A stretch of 23,522 bases of DNA from a virus (Duplodnaviria; Heunggongvirae; Uroviricota; Caudoviricetes): the IMG/VR virus record IMGVR_UViG_2703718809_000014; one strand, 5' to 3'. Below, piece by piece: positions 1-11,096 of this stretch (positions are counted from its first letter, which is position 1; the number at the start of each line of letters is the position of its first letter). Made by a program: the position numbers and the translations under genes. Under the pieces are notes generated by a model. That model was not told the origin of the DNA and made no database searches. It saw only the letters and a list, made by a program, of their open reading frames with translations.

Positions 1-1005
1 TTAATCCCCCGTGGACACTGCGTGGACACTTACGCCACCTTTCAGCGGATTAAGGGCCACCGCATCCTGCAGGTAATCCGGTGCAAAATGCGCATATGCC
101 ATTGTTTGCTGAATGGTTGCGTGACCAAGAATCTTCTGAAGCGCAATAATGTTTCCTCCGTTCATCACAAAATGGCTGGCGAACGTATGCCGCAGCACAT
201 GTGCAGCCTGGCCTTTTGGTAAATCGGGCTTAACTCTTTTCAGCGCCAGGCAGAATTCCCGGTACTTCACCTCAAACAAGCTGCCTGTTTCTCTGGTTTT
301 GATCGCCTCACAAACTGCCTGCGAAATTGGCACTGTTCTCTTCCGGCCATTTTTGGTTTCAAGAAACGTTACACGGTTATGAACTATCTGTTCACCACGA
401 AGCTTACAAGCTTCACTCCAGCGCGCCCCTGTGCTTAAACACAAAAGCGCAACACGCCAGTAGTCGCCCTCCAGTGTATCGAGCAATAGCGCCACTTCCT
501 TCTGTGACAGGAACGCCATTTCTCGTGGAGATACATAAAGAATAGAAATTCCCCTTACTGGATGTTCTGCATCCCAAAGACCTATTTTTTTCAGCACGGT
601 AAACATTCCGGATAACCGATTCATGTACCTGTTAGCAGATGACGGTTTCAATCCTTCAGCTATCTTTTGAGAACGCCACGCGATAATTTTCAGCTTATCA
701 AGATCCACAGCCTGCATATCAGCGCCAAGCTCATTAATTATGTTGCGCAGTTGTTTTCGGTCTTCTTCCGCCTTACGCCTGTGCTGGCCGTGATACATCC
801 ACCACAACTCAAGCAAATCATTTAGCGTTCGACGATCACGGTAGCCCTGTATATATTCCCGCTTTTCAGCGTTCGCCATGATGTAGCGTTCAGTGGCCAC
901 CGCTACCGATTTTTTGTCAAATACCTTACGCACGCGCTTTCCCTTGCGTCCGTTCGGCCTGATGTCCAGCAAATAACGACCATCTTCGAGCTTCTTAATC
1001 GACAT
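1..1005 (-). CDS. int: Tyrosine integrase (P2 Int-like)
   Basis: 334-aa ORF with C-terminal catalytic region HVLRHTFASHFVMNGGNIIALQKILGHATIQQTMAYAHF (R..H..R..Y signature). Start ATG at 1005 preceded by GGAGGG; the ORF track TTG start at 1020 is less likely. Confidence 0.9.
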   Translation of the reverse strand: MSIKKLEDGRYLLDIRPNGRKGKRVRKVFDKKSVAVATERYIMANAEKREYIQGYRDRRTLNDLLELWWMYHGQHRRKAEEDRKQLRNIINELGADMQAVDLDKLKIIAWRSQKIAEGLKPSSANRYMNRLSGMFTVLKKIGLWDAEHPVRGISILYVSPREMAFLSQKEVALLLDTLEGDYWRVALLCLSTGARWSEACKLRGEQIVHNRVTFLETKNGRKRTVPISQAVCEAIKTRETGSLFEVKYREFCLALKRVKPDLPKGQAAHVLRHTFASHFVMNGGNIIALQKILGHATIQQTMAYAHFAPDYLQDAVALNPLKGGVSVHAVSTGD

Positions 1006-1101
1006 TACGAAGCCCTCCAATGAACCGCTCTACAATTTCTCCAGCCTCTTTCCAGCAATAATCAGACCAGACAAAAAGCAGGTCTAACCAGTTTTCTGGC
1101 C

Positions 1102-1422
1102 TCAGCGGGATAATTTTTGGATTGTTTCGGTTGAAACGCGATCTCCCTCCGAATTGCAGGAACCATCAAGAGAGAGAGCCGGAGAAATTTGCCCGACCTC
1201 CGGCATCGTTTCATCTGTTGATAACCAATAAGCATACTTCTTAAATTTAGGGTGTTTCGTAACCTTAAGTAAGGCACCCTCTGTTACTTGCTTCCCCCTC
1301 ACCTCATAGTTAGTTACCGTCCCATAAGGCAGCCCAACACAATCCGCAAACTCCTGGCGGGTCATACCTTCTGCTTCACGAATCAGGCGAAATTTTTCAC
1401 CCATGCTTGACAAAGATGCCAT
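1102..1422 (-). CDS. C: Immunity repressor (P2 C-like)
   Basis: 106 aa from ATG at 1422 (GGAGGA upstream). Motif GLPYGTVTNYE...KFKKYAYWL...EVGQISPALS resembles P2 C (GVPYGTLSYYE...QFTKYTLWF...ESGQIAPALA as recalled). Leftward between int and cox as in P2. Confidence 0.75.
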   Translation of the reverse strand: MASLSSMGEKFRLIREAEGMTRQEFADCVGLPYGTVTNYEVRGKQVTEGALLKVTKHPKFKKYAYWLSTDETMPEVGQISPALSLDGSCNSEGDRVSTETIQKLSR

Positions 1423-1535
1423 ATCGGGCATATCCTCCATCGCAACATGCCACATCGGGCACAAACATAAAAACACTCAAATAAGCCGATATAAGCCATT
1501 TTGAGCCATTCGAACGAATTAGGGAGATTACCACA
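1423..1535. promoter_or_regulatory. C/cox immunity switch region with direct-repeat candidate operators (ATAAGCC, AGCCATT)
   Basis: Intergenic between divergent C and cox. Contains taagccgatATAAGCCATTttgAGCCATTcg at about 1480-1510, direct rather than inverted repeats, as P2 C operators are. Confidence 0.5.
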
Positions 1536-1823
1536 ATGAGCGAATCAGAGCTTGGGGGGTTCATTCAGGTAGCACCATATCCACTTGAAGCGGTGCCATA
1601 TCAACTATTCGCCAAGATGATCGGCCGCAAGGAATCCACAGTCAGAACCATGATTGACGCAGCAAAGCTACCGACAATTGACTTTGTGAAACCAGGTTCA
1701 GTAAAGACGCGTGCATCAGAAAACTGGGTATATCTGCCAGCATTTAACGAAGGCATGCGCAAAGCGTTTTTTGAGCAACCGAAAGAACGCCGCGACGCAT
1801 GGTTGTTGTGGCTGGGACTTTAG
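1536..1823 (+). CDS. cox: Cox-like excisionase / switch regulator
   Basis: 95 aa; YQLFAKMIGRKESTVRTMIDAAKLPTIDF...ENWVYLPAFNEGMRKAF...RRDAWLLWLGL parallels P2 Cox (YQEFAKLIGKSTGAVRRMIDKGKLPVID...EYWVYLPAWNNGL...IRDGWLMWLGL as recalled). Confidence 0.8.
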   Translation: MSESELGGFIQVAPYPLEAVPYQLFAKMIGRKESTVRTMIDAAKLPTIDFVKPGSVKTRASENWVYLPAFNEGMRKAFFEQPKERRDAWLLWLGL

Positions 1824-4023: not shown

Positions 4024-4286
4024 CCATTCTGGACTACATCGCTACTCATCCGGGTTGTAGCGGCGGAGAGATCGCCGCAGCACTGAATACTCCAACCACA
4101 GCCATTAATGCTGAGTTACGCCAACTTTGGCGCGGCGGCTTAGTCATCAGAACAAACCGCAGCACAGGTGGTCGCGCTCGCAAAACTGGAGGCCAGGCTT
4201 CTTACCACGTAAACCCGATGCCGTTCGGGTGTAGCAATCCACTTACTCACATGTTTAACCAGCTACTGAAGGAAGCCAGAACATGA
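4020..4286 (+). CDS. Putative winged-helix DNA-binding protein
   Basis: 88 aa; LDYIATHPGCSGGEIAAALNTPTTAINAELRQLWRGGLVIR has an HTH/wing pattern; coupled to ORFs on both sides by ATGA overlaps. Confidence 0.55.
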   Translation: MTILDYIATHPGCSGGEIAAALNTPTTAINAELRQLWRGGLVIRTNRSTGGRARKTGGQASYHVNPMPFGCSNPLTHMFNQLLKEART

Positions 4287-4582
4287 GCACCATCAACCAC
4301 CAGAAGCTACGCGAACTGGCATTTGCCCTGCAACGAATGGCAACGCCTCAAAAATTACTGGCATTTCGCGCAATGCTCTCGCCGTCTGCTGTGCTGGCAC
4401 TGCTGGATGAGCTGGAGCACGCCAGAACCACGGCTCCTGCCATTCGCCTGACACTCCATCATGAAATCGCTGATTTCTGCGCGACGTTGGAGGCACCCGG
4501 CGAACCGGAAACGCCGGAAGCAATACAGCAAGAGCTGCTGCAACGCATTGACAAGGTTTTTGATTTTTTTCTGAACCAGTAA
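4283..4582 (+). CDS. Hypothetical early protein
   Basis: 99-aa ORF, ATGA-coupled to the upstream gene. Confidence 0.6.
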   Translation: MSTINHQKLRELAFALQRMATPQKLLAFRAMLSPSAVLALLDELEHARTTAPAIRLTLHHEIADFCATLEAPGEPETPEAIQQELLQRIDKVFDFFLNQ

Positions 4583-4705
4583 GAAACCAGAACATGCACA
4601 CACAAAAAAACCGCTTGCCATGCCGCAATCGGTCAGGTTACATTTCCGCTGCACCTCATAAAACGGGTGCCGGGATTCTCAACCCGATACAGAGCAAAGC
4701 GCATA

Positions 4706-4726
4706 ACCGCGCCAGCGGTTTTTTTG
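4706..4726 (+). terminator. Terminator-like hairpin (ACCGC-GCCA-GCGGT plus T7 run)
   Basis: Short GC stem, 4-nt loop, then TTTTTTT, read directly from the sequence in the non-coding stretch. Confidence 0.4.
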
Positions 4727-4904
4727 TGCGTACTGTATTGCCACGTCTTTTTCGCGTCAGAATTATGGCGGGGCGTACGGGGCCGACTTCGGTCGGGCCG
4801 GATTCTTTGCTCTCCGGTGTTGAGAACCCTGTACGTCTCGCCACCCCGAGATTCTCAACTCTGGATGGTGAGCTATTTCTATCACCGAGCAAAGAGGCCA
4901 CACC

Positions 4905-5135
4905 ATGGCAAACCGCAAACAACAGCGCGCATACGCTGCGCGTCGTCACATCCAGACTGAAATCAACCGTAGACTTTTCCGCGCATCACGCGTCGCGCAA
5001 ATCATGCACATCAATATGCTGCATGAGCGCAGCCACGCGCTATCGAACATCTATTCCGCCTCTGTTTTCAGCTATCTGGCGGATGATCTGCGCGAGCTGC
5101 AACAACTCTTCCAGCAGCAAAACAAACTCCATTAA
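4905..5135 (+). CDS. Hypothetical early protein
   Basis: 76-aa ORF with AGAGG upstream of the ATG; basic N-terminus. Confidence 0.45.
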   Translation: MANRKQQRAYAARRHIQTEINRRLFRASRVAQIMHINMLHERSHALSNIYSASVFSYLADDLRELQQLFQQQNKLH

Positions 5136-5207
5136 TTCCTGTTCCGGGCCTTTCCTGCACCTTGCGGCGGGAGGCCTTCGCACATCTGTAGTAAAGAGAA
5201 TTGCAGC

Positions 5208-5597
5208 ATGATTGACGCTCATGACTTCACAAGATGGGTGCGCACACAGGACACCCGTCTGGCTCCCGTTCTTCAGGGATTATTTGATCTCTACATCCGT
5301 GGTCGTGACAACAGAGCACGCACCACAAAACCGGAAAATGCAGACACCCTTTATTTCACAGTAGACGACTGCTACCGCGTGGACTTCACACCACACGGGC
5401 TGGCGTTGCATTGCCTGACACCACACGGAGAATCACTGCTGGCGTATTACGACTCCCCGGCCTCCGTATTTGCGGCAATGCTGGCGCATCGCACTGCTGG
5501 CGGGTGTGCCTCGCTGAGTGAATACACCGCTGAATTTAACCGCCTTTCTGCCCTCTTCTCGCAGGAGTGGCAGCGCGTGACGGGATACCAGCCATGA
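5208..5597 (+). CDS. Hypothetical protein immediately upstream of gpA
   Basis: 129-aa ORF; its stop overlaps the gpA start (ATGA). Confidence 0.6.
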   Translation: MIDAHDFTRWVRTQDTRLAPVLQGLFDLYIRGRDNRARTTKPENADTLYFTVDDCYRVDFTPHGLALHCLTPHGESLLAYYDSPASVFAAMLAHRTAGGCASLSEYTAEFNRLSALFSQEWQRVTGYQP

Positions 5598-8434
5598 GTG
5601 AGTTTGCATGGAGCTGGAATGAACCACGGCCAGCCATTGATCCGGCCAGATTTACGGAGCACAGGCAGGAAACTGAAACCGACCTACAACGCGCCATCCG
5701 TTACTACCTTGAGGCAGACAAAAAGGCTCTGGAAGAACAGGAAGCGAAGGAGGAAGCCTTTTTCGCACAATCCACCGTGGGTAAAAAACTCATGGCATCC
5801 CTTGAGGAAGCCGGACAGCGTGAAAAGCTGGCACAAAGCATCATCAGCAAGCGTCAGGCAACAGAACAAGACCCGGTGGCCCGTGCTTTTGCCACACTGA
5901 AGGTGCTTCCCGTTTATCTGCGTGAACCTCTGAGCCGCCACCTCTCTTTCCTGCGCAAAAAACAGGAAGCCGATCGCCAGAAAGGCAAAAAGAGCTGGCA
6001 GGCTGAACGCTACGCGCGCGGAACCCTGCGCAAAATATTCGAACGCCTGGACCGCACCGATCACCGCTGGCTGACACCGGGTTATCGCTCCCTTGCCGGA
6101 CGCGAACGCCTGGACGATTTGCTTTACCTGCCGCAGCTCAACAAACACCAGATACAGACGCTGGCCACCATGACGGCGGCGATGTTCAGCAGCACCTTCG
6201 AAAAACTCTGCGATGGCTTTGGTGCGACTGATGGCGAACTGACCATGGATGTAACGCTGAAGGCGTATCAGATGCTGGCCCGCATGGCGTTACACCTGCA
6301 CGCCATGCCTCCACATTATGACGCACTGACAACAGACAAAGACCGGAGGAACGAACCGGACACGGAGCTGCTGCCGGGCGCAATCCTTCGCCTGACCTGT
6401 GCGGAATGGTGGAAACGCAAACTGTGGCTGTTACGTTGCGAGTGGAGAGAAGAACAACTCCGCGCCGCCTGTCTGGTTTCCAGAAAAACATCACCCTATC
6501 TGAGCCAGGACGCGTTAAGCGAGTTTCGCGCACAGCGCGAGAAAACACGCGATTTCCTGAAAAGTTTCATGCTGGAAAACGAAGACGGGTTCACGATTGA
6601 TCTCGAGACAGTGTATTACGCGGGAGTAAGTAACCCGGTTCACCGTAAGGCAGAAATGATGGCCACCATGAAGGGGCTGGAACTTCTGGCCGAAGCCCGT
6701 GGCGACAAAGCGGTGTTTCTGACTGTCACCTGCCCGTCAAAATACCACGCCACAACAGAGAACGGTCATCCGAATCCCAAATGGAACGGGGCCACCATGC
6801 GCGACTCCAGCGATTACCTGGTTAACACGTTTTTTGCGGCGGTCCGCAAGAAACTGAACCGCGACGGCCTGCGCTGGTATGGCATCCGCACGGTGGAGCC
6901 TCACCATGACGGCACCGTGCACTGGCATATGATGGTCTTTGCTCATCCGGAAGAAATCGACACCATTGTGTCCCACACCCGCGATATTGCCATTCAGGAA
7001 GACCGCCACGAGCTGGGCAATGATATTACTCCGCGCTTTAAGGTGGAGTATGTCGACGGCTCAAAAGGCACGCCAACCAGCTACATCGCCACCTACATCG
7101 GAAAGAACCTGGACAGCCGCGCCGTGGATGGCATCGACCCGAAAACGGGCAAGCCACGCGTTGACCACGAAACCGGAAAATCAATGGCCGAGAGCGTGGA
7201 ACGCGCCATCGGCTGGGCACGCCTTCACCGGGTCCGCCAGTTCCAGTTCTTTGGCATCCCCTCCCGTCAGGTATGGCGTGAACTCCGCCGCCTTGCCAGC
7301 CAGATGGCACGCAACCCGGAAGGCCCGCAACGGCTGAAGGATGATGCAATGGATGCGGTACTCGCTGCCGCTGATGCCGGGTGTTTTGCCACCTACATTG
7401 AGAAACAGGGCGGCGTACTTGTTCCACGCAAAGACTACCTGATTCGCACCGCCTACGACCTCGCAGATGAGCTGAACGATTACGGCGAACAGAGCGTACA
7501 GATTTACGGGATTTGGTCACCACTCATCGGGGAATCCTCCCGTGTGTGCACGCACCCGGATAACTGGAAGCTGGTAAGACGTAAACCGGAAGCGGAAGAC
7601 AGCACCCGCGAAAATGGTTTTGACCTTCAGGGCGGCCCTGCCGCCCCTTGGACTCGTGGCAATAACTGTCCCCGTGTACAGGAAACGGACAACAACGGGA
7701 CAGAACAGCCGGAAGAACGGCCAGCACCGTGGCCGCAGCTTCCTGACGGCGTTGATGTGGATGAATGGATGCGCTCACTGAAACGGCACGAACGCCGGGC
7801 GCTGATGCGTTCGCTGCGTGACAAACAGGCAAAAAACAGCAGTGATGAAATGCAGAGCTGGACACAGAGCCGCAAACAGCAGCGGCCTTTACCTGATAAC
7901 CACGAATTACTCGCTAAAGAATGGCGGGAGTCTGCCGAATCTCTCGGCCTGCATATCGGTGAACAGCAGATGCAGCACCTGTTACGGGGCGGCAGCCTGT
8001 ACGTTGACGGCAGCATCATTGCACCGCAGGGGTTTGAAATTGTACGCAAACCGGATACCCGCCCGGACAGCCGAATCACGCAGCTCTGGCAGCGCCTGAG
8101 CCGTAATCACGGCGTAAGCAGCACGGAGATCCGCCATAACCCGGTCGCCAGCTATCTGGAACAGCTGGGGGCATCAGACCCCGAAGCCGCCGCACGCCTG
8201 GCATCCACACTTCAGCAGGACCAGAACACCATGAAAACACCCGTTACCGTGCTTTCTGACATGCTGCGCGCCATCCGTGACGCAGAGCACGCACAGAGAA
8301 TCAGTGAAACCACTGAACGCGCCCGCCGCAAAGCAGATCTGCTGCGGGGTGGCCTGACCAGTGGAAACAAAAAACAGACAGAAACGGGATTCACAAATCC
8401 CGTAAATGAGCAAAAAACGCGCCGCGATATATGA
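5594..8434 (+). CDS. A: Rolling-circle replication initiator endonuclease (P2 gpA-like)
   Basis: 946 aa from ATG at 5594. Contains HUH-type motif TVHWHMMVFAHPEEID and paired catalytic tyrosines in TSYIATYIGKN (Y-x3-Y), both characteristic of P2 gpA-type Rep proteins. Confidence 0.9.
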   Translation: MSEFAWSWNEPRPAIDPARFTEHRQETETDLQRAIRYYLEADKKALEEQEAKEEAFFAQSTVGKKLMASLEEAGQREKLAQSIISKRQATEQDPVARAFATLKVLPVYLREPLSRHLSFLRKKQEADRQKGKKSWQAERYARGTLRKIFERLDRTDHRWLTPGYRSLAGRERLDDLLYLPQLNKHQIQTLATMTAAMFSSTFEKLCDGFGATDGELTMDVTLKAYQMLARMALHLHAMPPHYDALTTDKDRRNEPDTELLPGAILRLTCAEWWKRKLWLLRCEWREEQLRAACLVSRKTSPYLSQDALSEFRAQREKTRDFLKSFMLENEDGFTIDLETVYYAGVSNPVHRKAEMMATMKGLELLAEARGDKAVFLTVTCPSKYHATTENGHPNPKWNGATMRDSSDYLVNTFFAAVRKKLNRDGLRWYGIRTVEPHHDGTVHWHMMVFAHPEEIDTIVSHTRDIAIQEDRHELGNDITPRFKVEYVDGSKGTPTSYIATYIGKNLDSRAVDGIDPKTGKPRVDHETGKSMAESVERAIGWARLHRVRQFQFFGIPSRQVWRELRRLASQMARNPEGPQRLKDDAMDAVLAAADAGCFATYIEKQGGVLVPRKDYLIRTAYDLADELNDYGEQSVQIYGIWSPLIGESSRVCTHPDNWKLVRRKPEAEDSTRENGFDLQGGPAAPWTRGNNCPRVQETDNNGTEQPEERPAPWPQLPDGVDVDEWMRSLKRHERRALMRSLRDKQAKNSSDEMQSWTQSRKQQRPLPDNHELLAKEWRESAESLGLHIGEQQMQHLLRGGSLYVDGSIIAPQGFEIVRKPDTRPDSRITQLWQRLSRNHGVSSTEIRHNPVASYLEQLGASDPEAAARLASTLQQDQNTMKTPVTVLSDMLRAIRDAEHAQRISETTERARRKADLLRGGLTSGNKKQTETGFTNPVNEQKTRRDI

Positions 8435-8476
8435 AGCGCGCATAAAACAGGCAAAAACGGGATTTCAGAATCCCGT
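8384..8476. repeat. Twin 20-bp palindromes ACGGGATT-N4-AATCCCGT (8384-8403 and 8457-8476) within a roughly 35-bp direct repeat
   Basis: Read directly: ACGGGATTCACAAATCCCGT and ACGGGATTTCAGAATCCCGT, each with perfect 8-bp inverted arms; the first lies inside the gpA 3' end, the second between gpA and the parM-like gene. Confidence 0.7.
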
Positions 8477-8510
8477 AAACGATTAATTAATCAACATAAG
8501 GAAAAGCGAC

Positions 8511-9470
8511 ATGAAAATTTGTATCGACGACGGCTCCACCAACATCAAGCTGGCATGGACTGAGAACGGCGAACGCCGCAACGCCATCAGCCCGAACAGC
8601 TTCAAGTCGGAATGGTCTGCGCCGTTCGGTGGCACGCAGCCCGCGAACTACATGCTTGATGGCGTGCGCTATGGTTTTGATCCGGTCAGCGATCGCTTTG
8701 TCCAGACGACCGACACGCAATACCAGTACAGCGATGTGAATGTCATTGCCATTCATCACGCGCTGGTCAAATCAGGCATCACACCACAGGAAGTGGATGT
8801 GGTTGTCACCCTGCCACTGAGCGAGTATTTCGACACAAACGCACAGCCGGACATGGCCAACATCAACCGCAAAAAAGCGAACGTTATGCGCCCGGTGGAG
8901 TACCAGAACGGCGAAGCATTCACTATCCGTAACGTGCGGGTTATGCCTGAATCCATTCCGGCTGGCTTTAAAGCACTGGCTGACATGAGTCCGTTTGAAT
9001 CCCTGCTGATTGTGGATTTGGGCGGAACCACGCTGGATGTGGCAAAGGTTCAGGGGCAGCTGGCAGGTATCAGCCAGGTGTTTTGCGATCCACACGTAGG
9101 CGTTTCTCTGATGGCCGATGCCGTGCTGTCGGTGATGGCCACCAACGGTATGCGCACCAGTCACCACATCGCCAATACCATTATCGAACATCGCCACGAT
9201 GAAGCCTGGCTGCGCCAGCACATCCACAATGACGCGCATTACGCCAGCCTGATGGCGGTTATTCGTGAAAAGGAAGAAACACTGAAACAACGCGTGATCC
9301 GCGCGCTGGCGGGTTTTTCGGGTTACGGGCGGGTGATGGTTGTCGGTGGCGGGGCGGAGATTGTGGCACCCGCTATCCGCGAAGCCTGCGGAGTTAATGC
9401 GACTTTCATTGCGGACGGGGTGCCACAGTTTGCTCTGGTTAATGGGCTGCACGCAATGGACAAGGAGTAA
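8511..9470 (+). CDS. parM: Actin-like segregation ATPase (ParM/StbA family)
   Basis: 319 aa. N-terminus MKICIDDGSTNIKLAW...ISPNSFK...YQYSDVNVIAIHHAL, then LLIVDLGGTTLDV, FSGYGRVMVVGGGAEI and ALVNGL parallel plasmid R1 ParM (MLVFIDDGSTNIKLQW...SPNSFK...WQYSDVNVVAVHHAL...LLIIDLGGTTLDI...VMVIGGGAEL...LVNGM as recalled). RBS AAGGA upstream. Confidence 0.85.
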   Translation: MKICIDDGSTNIKLAWTENGERRNAISPNSFKSEWSAPFGGTQPANYMLDGVRYGFDPVSDRFVQTTDTQYQYSDVNVIAIHHALVKSGITPQEVDVVVTLPLSEYFDTNAQPDMANINRKKANVMRPVEYQNGEAFTIRNVRVMPESIPAGFKALADMSPFESLLIVDLGGTTLDVAKVQGQLAGISQVFCDPHVGVSLMADAVLSVMATNGMRTSHHIANTIIEHRHDEAWLRQHIHNDAHYASLMAVIREKEETLKQRVIRALAGFSGYGRVMVVGGGAEIVAPAIREACGVNATFIADGVPQFALVNGLHAMDKE

Positions 9471-9849: not shown

Positions 9850-10497
9850 ATGAGCAAAATTAACTATCAGGCACTGCGTGAGATAGCAAAACTGGCAACA
9901 CAGGGCGAATGGGTCGCATTCATTTCGCCGGGCACTGATACATATGCGGTGCATACGCCGGGGGATGAACGTTGCGGAGACATTATCAAATGGCCAGGCT
10001 TTGACGACCAGAAAAATGCAGAGAACAACGCAGAATTTATCGCAGCTTTCAACCCTGAAGTAGTACAGGCGTTGTTGGATGAACGGGAAGCCCAAAGTAA
10101 ACGCATTGCAGAGCTGGAGACTAATCTGGTGACACTCGCGGCGGAGAATGAGGCGTTGAAGTCGAACCTGATTTACTGGGGCGGCGAAGATTCAGGGGCT
10201 GTCAGAAGTCCGCTTGATTACGCCCGTGCAGCCGGGCTGGAATCTGGAGAGGAGTTTGAGATGCAAGTGGCAGCCAGAATGCCGAACCTGACTTATCGCG
10301 TTGTGTCGAATTCCCGATTCAGAACAACAATAGAACTGGTTGACGGATCATTGCCGGAAACCCCAGCCACCAATGCTTTTCTGGCTGAAGTACGAGCACA
10401 AGGCGTGGAGATGTTTGCTGAGTGCGCATACACACTTGAACATCATGATCACGCAGTAGCTTTTGCCGCCGAACTACGTAAAGGAGATAAACAGTGA
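9850..10497 (+). CDS. Ead/Ea22-like family protein with coiled-coil segment (paralog 1)
   Basis: 215 aa; N-terminus MSKINYQALREIAKLATQGEW matches the conserved Ea22-like N-terminal motif as recalled; predicted coiled coil KRIAELETNLVTLAAENEALKSNL; AAGGAG RBS. Confidence 0.7.
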   Translation: MSKINYQALREIAKLATQGEWVAFISPGTDTYAVHTPGDERCGDIIKWPGFDDQKNAENNAEFIAAFNPEVVQALLDEREAQSKRIAELETNLVTLAAENEALKSNLIYWGGEDSGAVRSPLDYARAAGLESGEEFEMQVAARMPNLTYRVVSNSRFRTTIELVDGSLPETPATNAFLAEVRAQGVEMFAECAYTLEHHDHAVAFAAELRKGDKQ

Positions 10498-11096
10498 ACA
10501 AAATTGACTATCAGGCACTGCGTGAGGCAGCACAAAACTATCAGTCGACGCTGGCGTGGTATGAGGCCATCCCGGATAGCCCATGCTCTGAGGTTGATTG
10601 TGATAGAGTTTTGGCTGCGTTTAAGTGTCAAATTCGTCATCGGGAAATGGATATTATCGCCGATCTGCTGGATGAACTGGACGAAAAACAGCATTACATC
10701 AAACTCCGCGACCAGGAAAACGAGGAAATTGCGATAACGATAGGGAAGCTGCGTATTGAGCTGGAAGAAGCAAAATCAAAACTCAACGAGCAGCGTGAGT
10801 ATTACAAGAGTGTTATCGCCGATGGAAGTAATCGCATTGCAGAACTGGAAGAGATCGCCACTGACTACGCACTGAAATTTCAGAAAGCACAGGATGCACT
10901 AAAGCATGCTGTGTTAATGCGTAACAAATCGCTTTCTTTTGAGAAAGCGGTGCGTCACCCAACCTCAGAGTGTGGCACATTTACAGTGGAGATCCCGAAT
11001 CCAAAGGAGTATTTCATTAACGGCGTATTCCAGCCTTTGCGATACGAACGGGATGTTGAACGAGCCATCATAAAGGCAGGTGGAAAAGTCTCGTGA
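10494..11096 (+). CDS. Ead/Ea22-like family protein with long coiled coil (paralog 2)
   Basis: 200 aa; GTG start at 10494 overlapping the upstream stop (GTGA), AAGGAG 8 nt upstream; N-terminus MNKIDYQALREAA shared with paralog 1; extended heptad-like region LRIELEEAKSKLNEQREYYK...IAELEEIATDYALKFQKAQDALK. Confidence 0.7.
   Translation: MNKIDYQALREAAQNYQSTLAWYEAIPDSPCSEVDCDRVLAAFKCQIRHREMDIIADLLDELDEKQHYIKLRDQENEEIAITIGKLRIELEEAKSKLNEQREYYKSVIADGSNRIAELEEIATDYALKFQKAQDALKHAVLMRNKSLSFEKAVRHPTSECGTFTVEIPNPKEYFINGVFQPLRYERDVERAIIKAGGKVS

Follow-up and report, generated by a model that had tools for sequence, protein, structure and literature searches.

In phages P1 and P7, the c4 RNA controls an antirepressor as a second layer of immunity beside the protein repressor, and the immunity region of satellite P4 comprises the promoter PLE, seqA, the CI RNA gene (seqB), seqC, epsilon, orf151 and alpha. 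P4 CI is an experimentally defined immunity RNA, and RNAs of this C4 type are excised by RNase P in both P1 and P4. The c4 repressors of phages P1 and P7 are RNAs of the antisense type (Citron & Schuster 1990, as cited in PMC2864571). In the Salmonella prophage Gifsy-1, IsrK supplied in trans raises translation of a downstream antirepressor 139-fold, and the authors of that work pointed out that IsrK resembles P4 seqA and that STnc1160, the stable RNA downstream of it, resembles CI (PMC4825925). Here we analyse positions 4583-4904 of a 23,522-nucleotide (nt) stretch of viral DNA (IMG/VR record IMGVR_UViG_2703718809_000014; the window, below, is this whole stretch), immediately upstream of a gene for an epsilon-like protein of 76 amino acids (aa). 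The interval holds two RNA genes of known families that are complementary to one another, one of the targeted segments (a2) overlaps the ribosome binding site (RBS) of the epsilon-like gene, and all pairing partners co-evolve. We consider it very probable that the interval is an RNA immunity cassette of the P1 immI/P4 type, which would block translation of an antirepressor in a P88-like (P2-family) prophage.

A scan of the whole window against Rfam returned exactly two matches above the gathering score, both on the + strand and both inside the interval. The first is isrK (RF01394; 62.8 bits against a gathering score of 50, E 1.7e-11, model positions 1-77 of 77), and the second is C4 (RF01695; 78.5 bits against 45, E 4e-14, model positions 1-87 of 87); isrK accompanied C4 in all 16 related loci scanned. 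The original prediction had read the interval as a structured RNA or regulatory element that carries no credible open reading frame (ORF) and lies upstream of the replication genes, and had suggested the Rfam/Infernal search that found these two families. That reading was borne out: the interval precedes ORF129 and gpA, and its open 205-aa frame (4594-5211) lacks a coding-type pattern of substitution. The interval does contain a small RNA, as had been proposed, yet there are two rather than one, and the anticipated transcript of 100-150 nt gives way to a terminated RNA predicted to be ~75 nt long (4651-4725). The Rfam family c4-a1b1 (RF03163) reached 15.9 bits at 4638-4690 against a gathering score of 46.7, a threshold that P4 itself falls under at 44.1 bits, and this segment is better described by the overlapping isrK. 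Sub-threshold matches to CRISPR-DR33, STnc410, Hrs13 and Ms_IGR-4 were dismissed as chance.

The leader begins with a putative sigma-70-like promoter whose two hexamers are invariant in all 46 distinct aligned sequences, with the DNA upstream of ~4603 diverging into several classes. It aligns with its counterpart in P4, TTGCCT-18-TATAGT, which stands upstream of the P4 isrK/seqA element; judging from the sequence it probably functions as a promoter, with a predicted transcription start at ~4651. The IsrK-like RNA has a minimum free energy (MFE) of -24.2 kcal/mol, and its fold is more stable than expected on the + strand (z -3.1) compared with the - strand (z -1.2). The terminator-like hairpin with a run of seven T residues that had been noted in the original prediction was recovered in a terminator scan (stem-loop 4705-4720, T run 4719-4725) and is nearly invariant, being identical in 41 of 46 relatives. 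We discarded a second promoter-like match before C4 (4738-4766), since 19 of 46 relatives have TCGCCA or another sequence in place of TTGCCA as its -35 hexamer and its -10 hexamer coincides with the conserved 5' flank that belongs to the C4 model. Conservation of the cassette ends leftward at ~4603, where relatives swap among several unrelated upstream sequences, which suggests a recombination junction at this left boundary.

The C4 core is built from a 17-bp closing stem, a UUCG hairpin (4783-4796) and a second hairpin (4797-4818) that carries the specificity segment a'. The UUCG hairpin was already part of the original prediction, although the string written out there is not perfectly complementary and the true stem has 5 bp. 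The MFE fold of C4 is the family structure, at -47.6 kcal/mol, with none of 200 shuffles as stable, and its z-score is -4.9 on the + strand versus -2.6 on the - strand. In an alignment of 16 sequences (the window copy, P4 CI, two lambdoid copies and twelve relatives) all 405 cells of the 27 structural pairs (100%) are paired, and compensatory changes occur at 13 pairs, a number reached in 0 of 500 shuffles. In one relative, locus L018 (236-340), the a' hairpin is duplicated through an insertion of 18 nt within C4; its C4 (Rfam score 73.9 bits) would bear two different a' loops, one of the window type and one of the type found in L071.

Two sets of short complementary segments tie the C4 RNA to the sequences on either side of it. 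One was visible in the original prediction as the motif GATTCTCAAC, described as occurring twice in direct orientation and once inverted; the direct copies (4674-4683 and 4850-4859) are exact, and the inverted copy at 4819-4828 agrees at only nine of ten positions (GTTGAGAACC). The other sequence features listed there are likewise present, displaced by 1-2 nt at most. These three are the only matches to GATTCTCAAC with at most one mismatch in the 23.5-kb window, and their count alone is not significant (at least three such matches occur in 18 of 100 shuffles), so the significance of the element rests on Rfam E-values, fold z-scores and covariation rather than on motif counts. The second set, overlooked previously, consists of AGAGCAAAG (4691-4699), UUCUUUGCUCU (4803-4813) and GAGCAAAGAG (4887-4896). 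We name the segments a1 and b1 in the IsrK leader, a' and b' in C4, and b2 and a2 downstream of it; the upstream targets offer 8 and 9 bp of pairing and the downstream targets 8 and 10 bp (Table 1). Segment a2 overlaps the Shine-Dalgarno (SD) sequence AAGAGG (4892-4897), which stands 7 nt ahead of the start codon ATG at 4905. When a read-through transcript (4651-4915) is folded, its MFE structure (z -4.7) has a'/b' paired in cis with b2/a2 and the SD buried. Whole-length RNAduplex comparison of C4 with its flanks gave an uninformative -55 kcal/mol, since it ignores intramolecular structure, and pairing was therefore assessed by segment-level duplexes and covariation counts.

Table 1. Features of the RNA cassette and of the surrounding early region, in window coordinates.
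Feature	Position	Strand	Remarks
Sigma-70-like promoter (putative)	4615-4644	+	TTGCCA 4615-4620, 18-nt spacer, TACATT 4639-4644; 9/12 consensus positions
IsrK-like leader/small RNA (P4 'seqA' equivalent)	4651-4725	+	three hairpins; decoy sites b1 and a1
b1	4676-4683	+	UUCUCAAC; loop of IsrK hairpin 2; complementary to b'
a1	4691-4699	+	AGAGCAAAG; single-stranded in IsrK; 9 bp with a'
Intrinsic terminator of IsrK	4705-4725	+	AACCGC/GCGGTT stem, GCCA loop, T7 run
C4/CI-type antisense RNA	4761-4848	+	Rfam RF01695; folded core 4766-4843
UUCG hairpin of C4	4783-4796	+	CCGAC-UUCG-GUCGG
a'	4803-4813	+	UUCUUUGCUCU; C4 hairpin loop; specificity segment, pairs with a1 and a2
b'	4819-4826	+	GUUGAGAA; unpaired C4 junction strand; pairs with b1 and b2; the 'inverted' motif
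b2	4852-4859	+	UUCUCAAC; downstream target of b'
a2	4887-4896	+	GAGCAAAGAG; downstream target of a', 9 Watson-Crick pairs and 1 G-U
Epsilon-like gene (76 aa)	4905-5135	+	next gene after the RNA interval
ORF129	5208-5597	+	same operon; upstream of gpA
Replication protein gpA	5594-8434	+	Pfam Phage_GPA, 437 bits
Integrase	1-1020	-	
P2 C-type immunity repressor	1102-1476	-	37% identity to P2 C, E 1e-22; HTH_3
Cox	1536-1823		Cox switch partner of the C repressor
Ead/Ea22-like gene (sub-threshold match)	4283-4582		directly upstream of the RNA interval

Relatives of the cassette were collected as 80 IMG/VR loci encoding copies of the 76-aa protein at least 91% identical to that of the window, which yielded 45 distinct upstream sequences, 78-100% identical. 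Most of their variation falls within the six segments, at a mean column entropy of 0.7-1.1 bits, whereas the stems of C4, the hairpins of IsrK, the terminator and the promoter hardly vary (0-0.2 bits); the a' loop is hypervariable at 0.85 bits against 0.0 for its own stem. The segments occurred in 20 combinations, in which the a types (12 or more) and b types (6 or more) are reshuffled from locus to locus. This variation is concerted: in an 18-sequence alignment of distinct relatives, 95.4% of cells are paired between a1/b1 and a'/b', with 75 double-sided changes versus 21.0±3.3 in shuffles, and 93.0% between a'/b' and b2/a2, with 73 double-sided changes versus 22.7±3.7, compared with 25-53% paired in slid controls. 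The a1/a' helix is paired in 100% of cells, and six of its nine pairs have changed on both sides. Cognate duplexes average -10 to -16.5 kcal/mol and non-cognate ones -3.4 to -8.3, a roughly twofold difference in stability.

These patterns also bear on the idea that the GATTCTCAAC repeats form a DNA operator array for a sequence-specific binding protein, an option raised by the original prediction; in its favour, both direct copies and the single inverted one fall within 186 bp. Among relatives whose flanking proteins are at least 91% identical, however, the b types (6 or more) and a types (12 or more) are reshuffled combinatorially with no co-varying DNA-binding protein present, and the motifs fall in the hairpin loop and junction strand of RNAs matched by covariance models. 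Pairing between the segments, moreover, tolerates occasional G-U wobble, which fits RNA pairing and not DNA repeats; together with the strand asymmetry of the folds, the G-U pairs point to the + strand RNA. With the repeats acting as RNA-RNA pairing segments that covary by both Watson-Crick and G-U pairs, an operator array is extremely unlikely.

An unbiased search of IMG/VR with an IUPAC form of the C4 core gave at least 127 cores in 120 loci, and 126 of the 127 listed had a cognate a2 run of at least 8 nt and 126 a cognate b2 run of at least 7 nt, far fewer doing so with swapped loops; cognate upstream complements were also nearly universal among the cores listed. The start codon follows a2 by 8-9 nt in 85 of 119 independent C4 loci. 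The predicted cassette design, C4 with cognate targets before a start codon, is thus general, and its specificities are many: the 127 cores listed contain at least 54 a' loops and at least 21 b' segments. P1 and P7 differ in c4 specificity, as do the classes here. Among the cassettes compared, those from one genome or in tandem all had different a'/b' combinations, a difference that is not statistically informative given that the 127 cassettes listed comprise 75 combinations. In some lambdoid viral contigs, two to three isrK-C4-Rha cassettes stand in tandem with a 656-bp period, each with a different a'/b' (L107 at 4694 and 5353; L108 at 3682 and 4338; L125 at 9729, 10385 and 11041; L193 at 4821 and 5477), and cassettes of one genome on separate contigs differ as well (L030/L056, L119/L149, L193/L199). 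Among the cassettes listed, no a'/b' combination was identical between P4-like satellites and P88-like phages, and some b' types were common to both.

Another alternative is that the interval encodes a protein, the 205-aa Arg/Ser-rich 'Ash family' product of the ORF at 4594-5211. The frame is indeed open, it is an annotated coding sequence (CDS) in phage PhiR44_2, one record carries the note 'similar to ash family protein', and it has a weak match to Pfam PF10554 Phage_ASH (19.3 bits, E 0.0016). That score is under the gathering score of 26, however, and in P4 and ASU11 the Phage_ASH matches fall on isrK and C4 DNA. As a gene, the ORF would begin before the conserved promoter and run through the intrinsic terminator, its substitutions are compensatory in the RNA and land on codon position 2 of this frame, and RefSeq and P88 records call the 76-aa derepression gene instead. 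We therefore regard an Ash-type product of the interval as very unlikely; the long open frame is probably a chance occurrence in GC-rich structured DNA. It is stop-free in 73 of 80 relatives and in Citrobacter phage Shae_phiSM, and its TGA overlaps the ATG of ORF129.

The Phage_ASH matches lie on isrK and C4 DNA in three unrelated contexts: the window (4639-4926), P4 (L004, 8330-8521) and ASU11 (L086, 2003-2278). The highest scores were obtained with an obsolete P4 'cI protein' ORF (59.7 bits) and with the N-terminal 107 aa of an ASU11 'putative antirepressor' (67.8 bits), which has a real Rha domain from aa 123 and whose true start is likely ATG 2259. Because its matches coincide with RNA genes, Phage_ASH looks like the product of translating such genes and like a source of mis-annotation. 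Of 5426 complete E. coli genomes, 1181 contain the region. Neither the RefSeq record inspected (L088, NZ_CP027435.1 1501-1822) nor the phage records inspected (L001-L003, L085) annotate any RNA gene in the interval. Some records instead carry an over-extended 'antirepressor', an 'ash family' note or a 205-aa hypothetical protein, and spurious CDSs occur on either strand, such as P88 SF19_gp13, which runs on the minus strand across IsrK and C4.

The gene whose SD is targeted encodes a putative antirepressor. Its product scores 31.5 bits with Pfam PF25738 Derepression (gathering score 27), a domain found in 117 of the 120 homologues listed, many of them named 'derepression protein', and BLASTP aligns it with epsilon, the helper-derepression protein of P4 (E 4e-9; 51 aa at 33% identity). 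NCBIfam gave no match for the epsilon-like protein, ORF129 or the 205-aa ORF. Substitutions in the epsilon frame are concentrated at third codon positions (15, 16 and 27 variable sites at positions 1, 2 and 3), and aa identity with Shae_phiSM is 64.5%, compared with 48% for the overlapping open frame. From P4 biology, the protein would be presumed to target the prophage's P2 C-type repressor.

The arrangement is closest to that of P4, where the elements also follow one another on one strand (isrK 8615-8692, the C4-family CI RNA gene 8420-8507, epsilon 7888-8175): promoter, isrK/seqA leader with terminator, C4-family RNA, b2/a2 with a2 on an SD, and an epsilon-family gene downstream, all upstream of the element's replication gene. 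There are differences, too. In P4 the targeted SD (AGGAGG) belongs to a 65-aa ORF between CI and epsilon, whereas in the window the epsilon-like gene is the direct target; P4 replicates through the alpha primase, the window element through a P2 gpA nickase; the a'/b' sequences are not the same; and P4 is a satellite, whereas the window holds a complete P2-like phage with its own C repressor, Cox switch and structural genes. With P1/P7 immI, compared by description, the locus shares the Rfam family, the a1/b1, a'/b' and a2/b2 logic and the targeting of the first gene's RBS, but icd/ant lie downstream there rather than a small epsilon-type gene, and in the window an IsrK-type leader with its own terminator precedes C4 and the cassette is embedded in an early replication operon. 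P2 itself has neither isrK nor C4 in its early region; the cassette therefore cannot count as a general feature of P2.

The isrK-orf45(STnc1160)-anrP locus of Salmonella Gifsy-1, which holds the founding member of Rfam isrK, likewise has a terminated IsrK and a read-through mRNA, a processed stable RNA and a regulated antirepressor (PMC4825925). Its host is a lambdoid prophage, however, its antirepressor belongs to another family, a translated 45-codon upstream ORF provides coupling for which the window has no equivalent short ORF, and the published model is activation by IsrK, not repression by a C4-like RNA. Hfq binding by IsrK and its action in trans on its own read-through mRNA are known for Gifsy-1 only (PMC4825925). 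Cassettes in lambdoid, mostly Stx, phages (~130 records match the RNA region of the window at 60-80% identity) also have ~55 nt between the end of C4 and the start codon and have some b' types in common with epsilon-linked cassettes, but a Rha-family or antirepressor gene is regulated there and the a' loops are not common to both.

By homology with P1 c4, P4 CI and Gifsy-1 IsrK, the switch could operate as follows. In the lysogen, transcription would begin at the internal promoter; following infection or induction, it would begin at the early promoter Pe. Transcripts from the internal promoter would mostly end at the terminator to give IsrK, and read-through transcripts would include C4, to be cut out as a stable RNA. 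Pairing of C4 with b2/a2, in cis or in trans, would hide the RBS, so that the epsilon-like antirepressor would not be made, and polarity may lower expression of ORF129 and gpA downstream as possible indirect targets. With its duplicate targets the IsrK leader would titrate C4, the ratio of target to C4 setting the switch, and any epsilon-like protein made would be expected to inactivate the P2 C-type repressor and lead to lytic growth. The variable a'/b' segments would define specificity (heteroimmunity) classes.

Several considerations temper this scheme. For use of the promoter, efficiency of termination, processing of C4 and the resulting regulation, it draws on analogy; the epsilon-like protein shares just 33% identity with P4 epsilon along 51 aa and has a putative target. 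The cassette lies within a Pe-driven operon, unlike those of P4 and P1, and its role in the lysogen as against infection is uncertain. Within C4, ATG 4765 heads a frame that stays open over 148 codons in 73 of 80 relatives; a Gifsy-like upstream ORF may be translated from it. In P4 the main documented output is premature transcription termination, not a pure translational block. Gifsy-1 has been interpreted as activation by IsrK (PMC4825925). Given these last two precedents, control in the window could depart in detail from the scheme, in its sign as well as its level.

The P4 precedent corresponds to an alternative in which the cassette is the same and C4 pairing with its targets causes premature (Rho-dependent or terminator-enhanced) termination, gpA being what is truly controlled and the epsilon block a mere trigger. 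The arrangement is nearest that of the P4 immunity region, and the CI RNA controls expression of the replication operon in P4; here the operon continues directly downstream with ORF129 and gpA, whose translation is coupled through an ATGA overlap, and the hairpin-bearing 72 nt at 5136-5207 are almost identical in the diverged Citrobacter relative. Yet the position of a2 on the SD is precisely that of the P1 c4/icd design, the terminator scan found no terminator-like T-run after the targets, and lytic growth requires gpA expression from Pe through this very region. Such an output is compatible with the immunity cassette proposed above, and we regard it as possible but on balance unlikely.

Activation of the Gifsy-1 type, in which the mRNA would be inactive in cis, IsrK would activate in trans and translation from ATG 4765 would open the RBS, draws on experiments with the Gifsy-1 isrK-orf45-anrP locus (PMC4825925). 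ATG 4765 lies 115 nt from the predicted start, much as the orf45 AUGs lie at nt 107 and 120, C4 is paired with b2/a2 in the cis fold, and the frame, open in those 73 relatives, has a stop that overlaps the start of ORF129 (ATGA, 5208-5211). Against it, ATG 4765 lacks an SD, the frame runs across the epsilon-like gene for 148 codons rather than ending before it, its variable sites peak at codon position 2 (16, 27 and 15 at positions 1, 2 and 3), and its aa conservation with Shae_phiSM is 48% versus 64.5% for the epsilon frame. We judge activation of this type improbable and retain translational blocking of the epsilon-like gene by C4 as the preferred reading.

The window contains a complete P2-family prophage, whose closest sequenced relatives are the P88-like phages of genus Xuanwuvirus. 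Besides the genes in Table 1 it encodes small early proteins ahead of gpA, and ParM, portal, terminase and P2-type capsid, and it thus falls outside the definition of a P4-like satellite (no structural genes; alpha primase, sid/delta/psu); a P4-like cassette is housed here in a full P2-family phage. ORF129 had no family assigned by Pfam and no similarity to P4 orf151 was found for it. Directly 3' of gpA lies a ParM/StbA-type actin-like segregation gene (8511-9470; StbA_N 275 bits, ParM_N 229 bits), an unusual cargo for the P2 family that suggests an option of plasmid-like maintenance, followed by two clear Ead/Ea22-like genes (9850-10497 and 10494-11096). The 72-nt spacer between the epsilon-like gene and ORF129 (5136-5207) is almost identical in the window and Shae_phiSM, and the coding DNA flanking it is only ~73% identical; it contains a hairpin at ~5146-5177 (-28 kcal/mol for 5128-5212, z -1.9) that may be a further regulatory or termination element.

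The element is of a known kind, a counterpart of the P4 seqA-CI-seqC and P1 immI c4 regions, and it is not novel in principle, since its families are in Rfam and the principle is established in P1/P7, P4 and Gifsy-1. Literature searches found no description of this cassette in P88-like phages. Of some note are the direct wiring to an epsilon-type gene in a full P2-family phage and the extent of specificity polymorphism, and recognising the cassette accounts for an apparent gap in the early operon. It also predicts that these P2-family prophages would be induced through an epsilon-type antirepressor under antisense control, and the three-way covariation supplies sets of orthogonal RNA-target pairs and a testable case of heteroimmunity classes. 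For annotation, the locus exemplifies immunity control by RNA only, in about one fifth of complete E. coli genomes.

More tentatively, and as a conjecture we hold to be plausible without being probable, P88-like phages may use the P4-type RNA cassette as a second immunity layer over C/Cox, with a'/b' a combinatorial barcode under diversifying selection. Cassettes in the same cell would then stay orthogonal, and phages, lambdoid prophages and P4-like satellites would swap specificity modules. P88 was recovered after mitomycin C treatment (PMC5285337), and a barcode of this sort might explain such recovery of P88-type phages despite a P2-type repressor. It could also decide which co-resident prophages and satellites are derepressed together.

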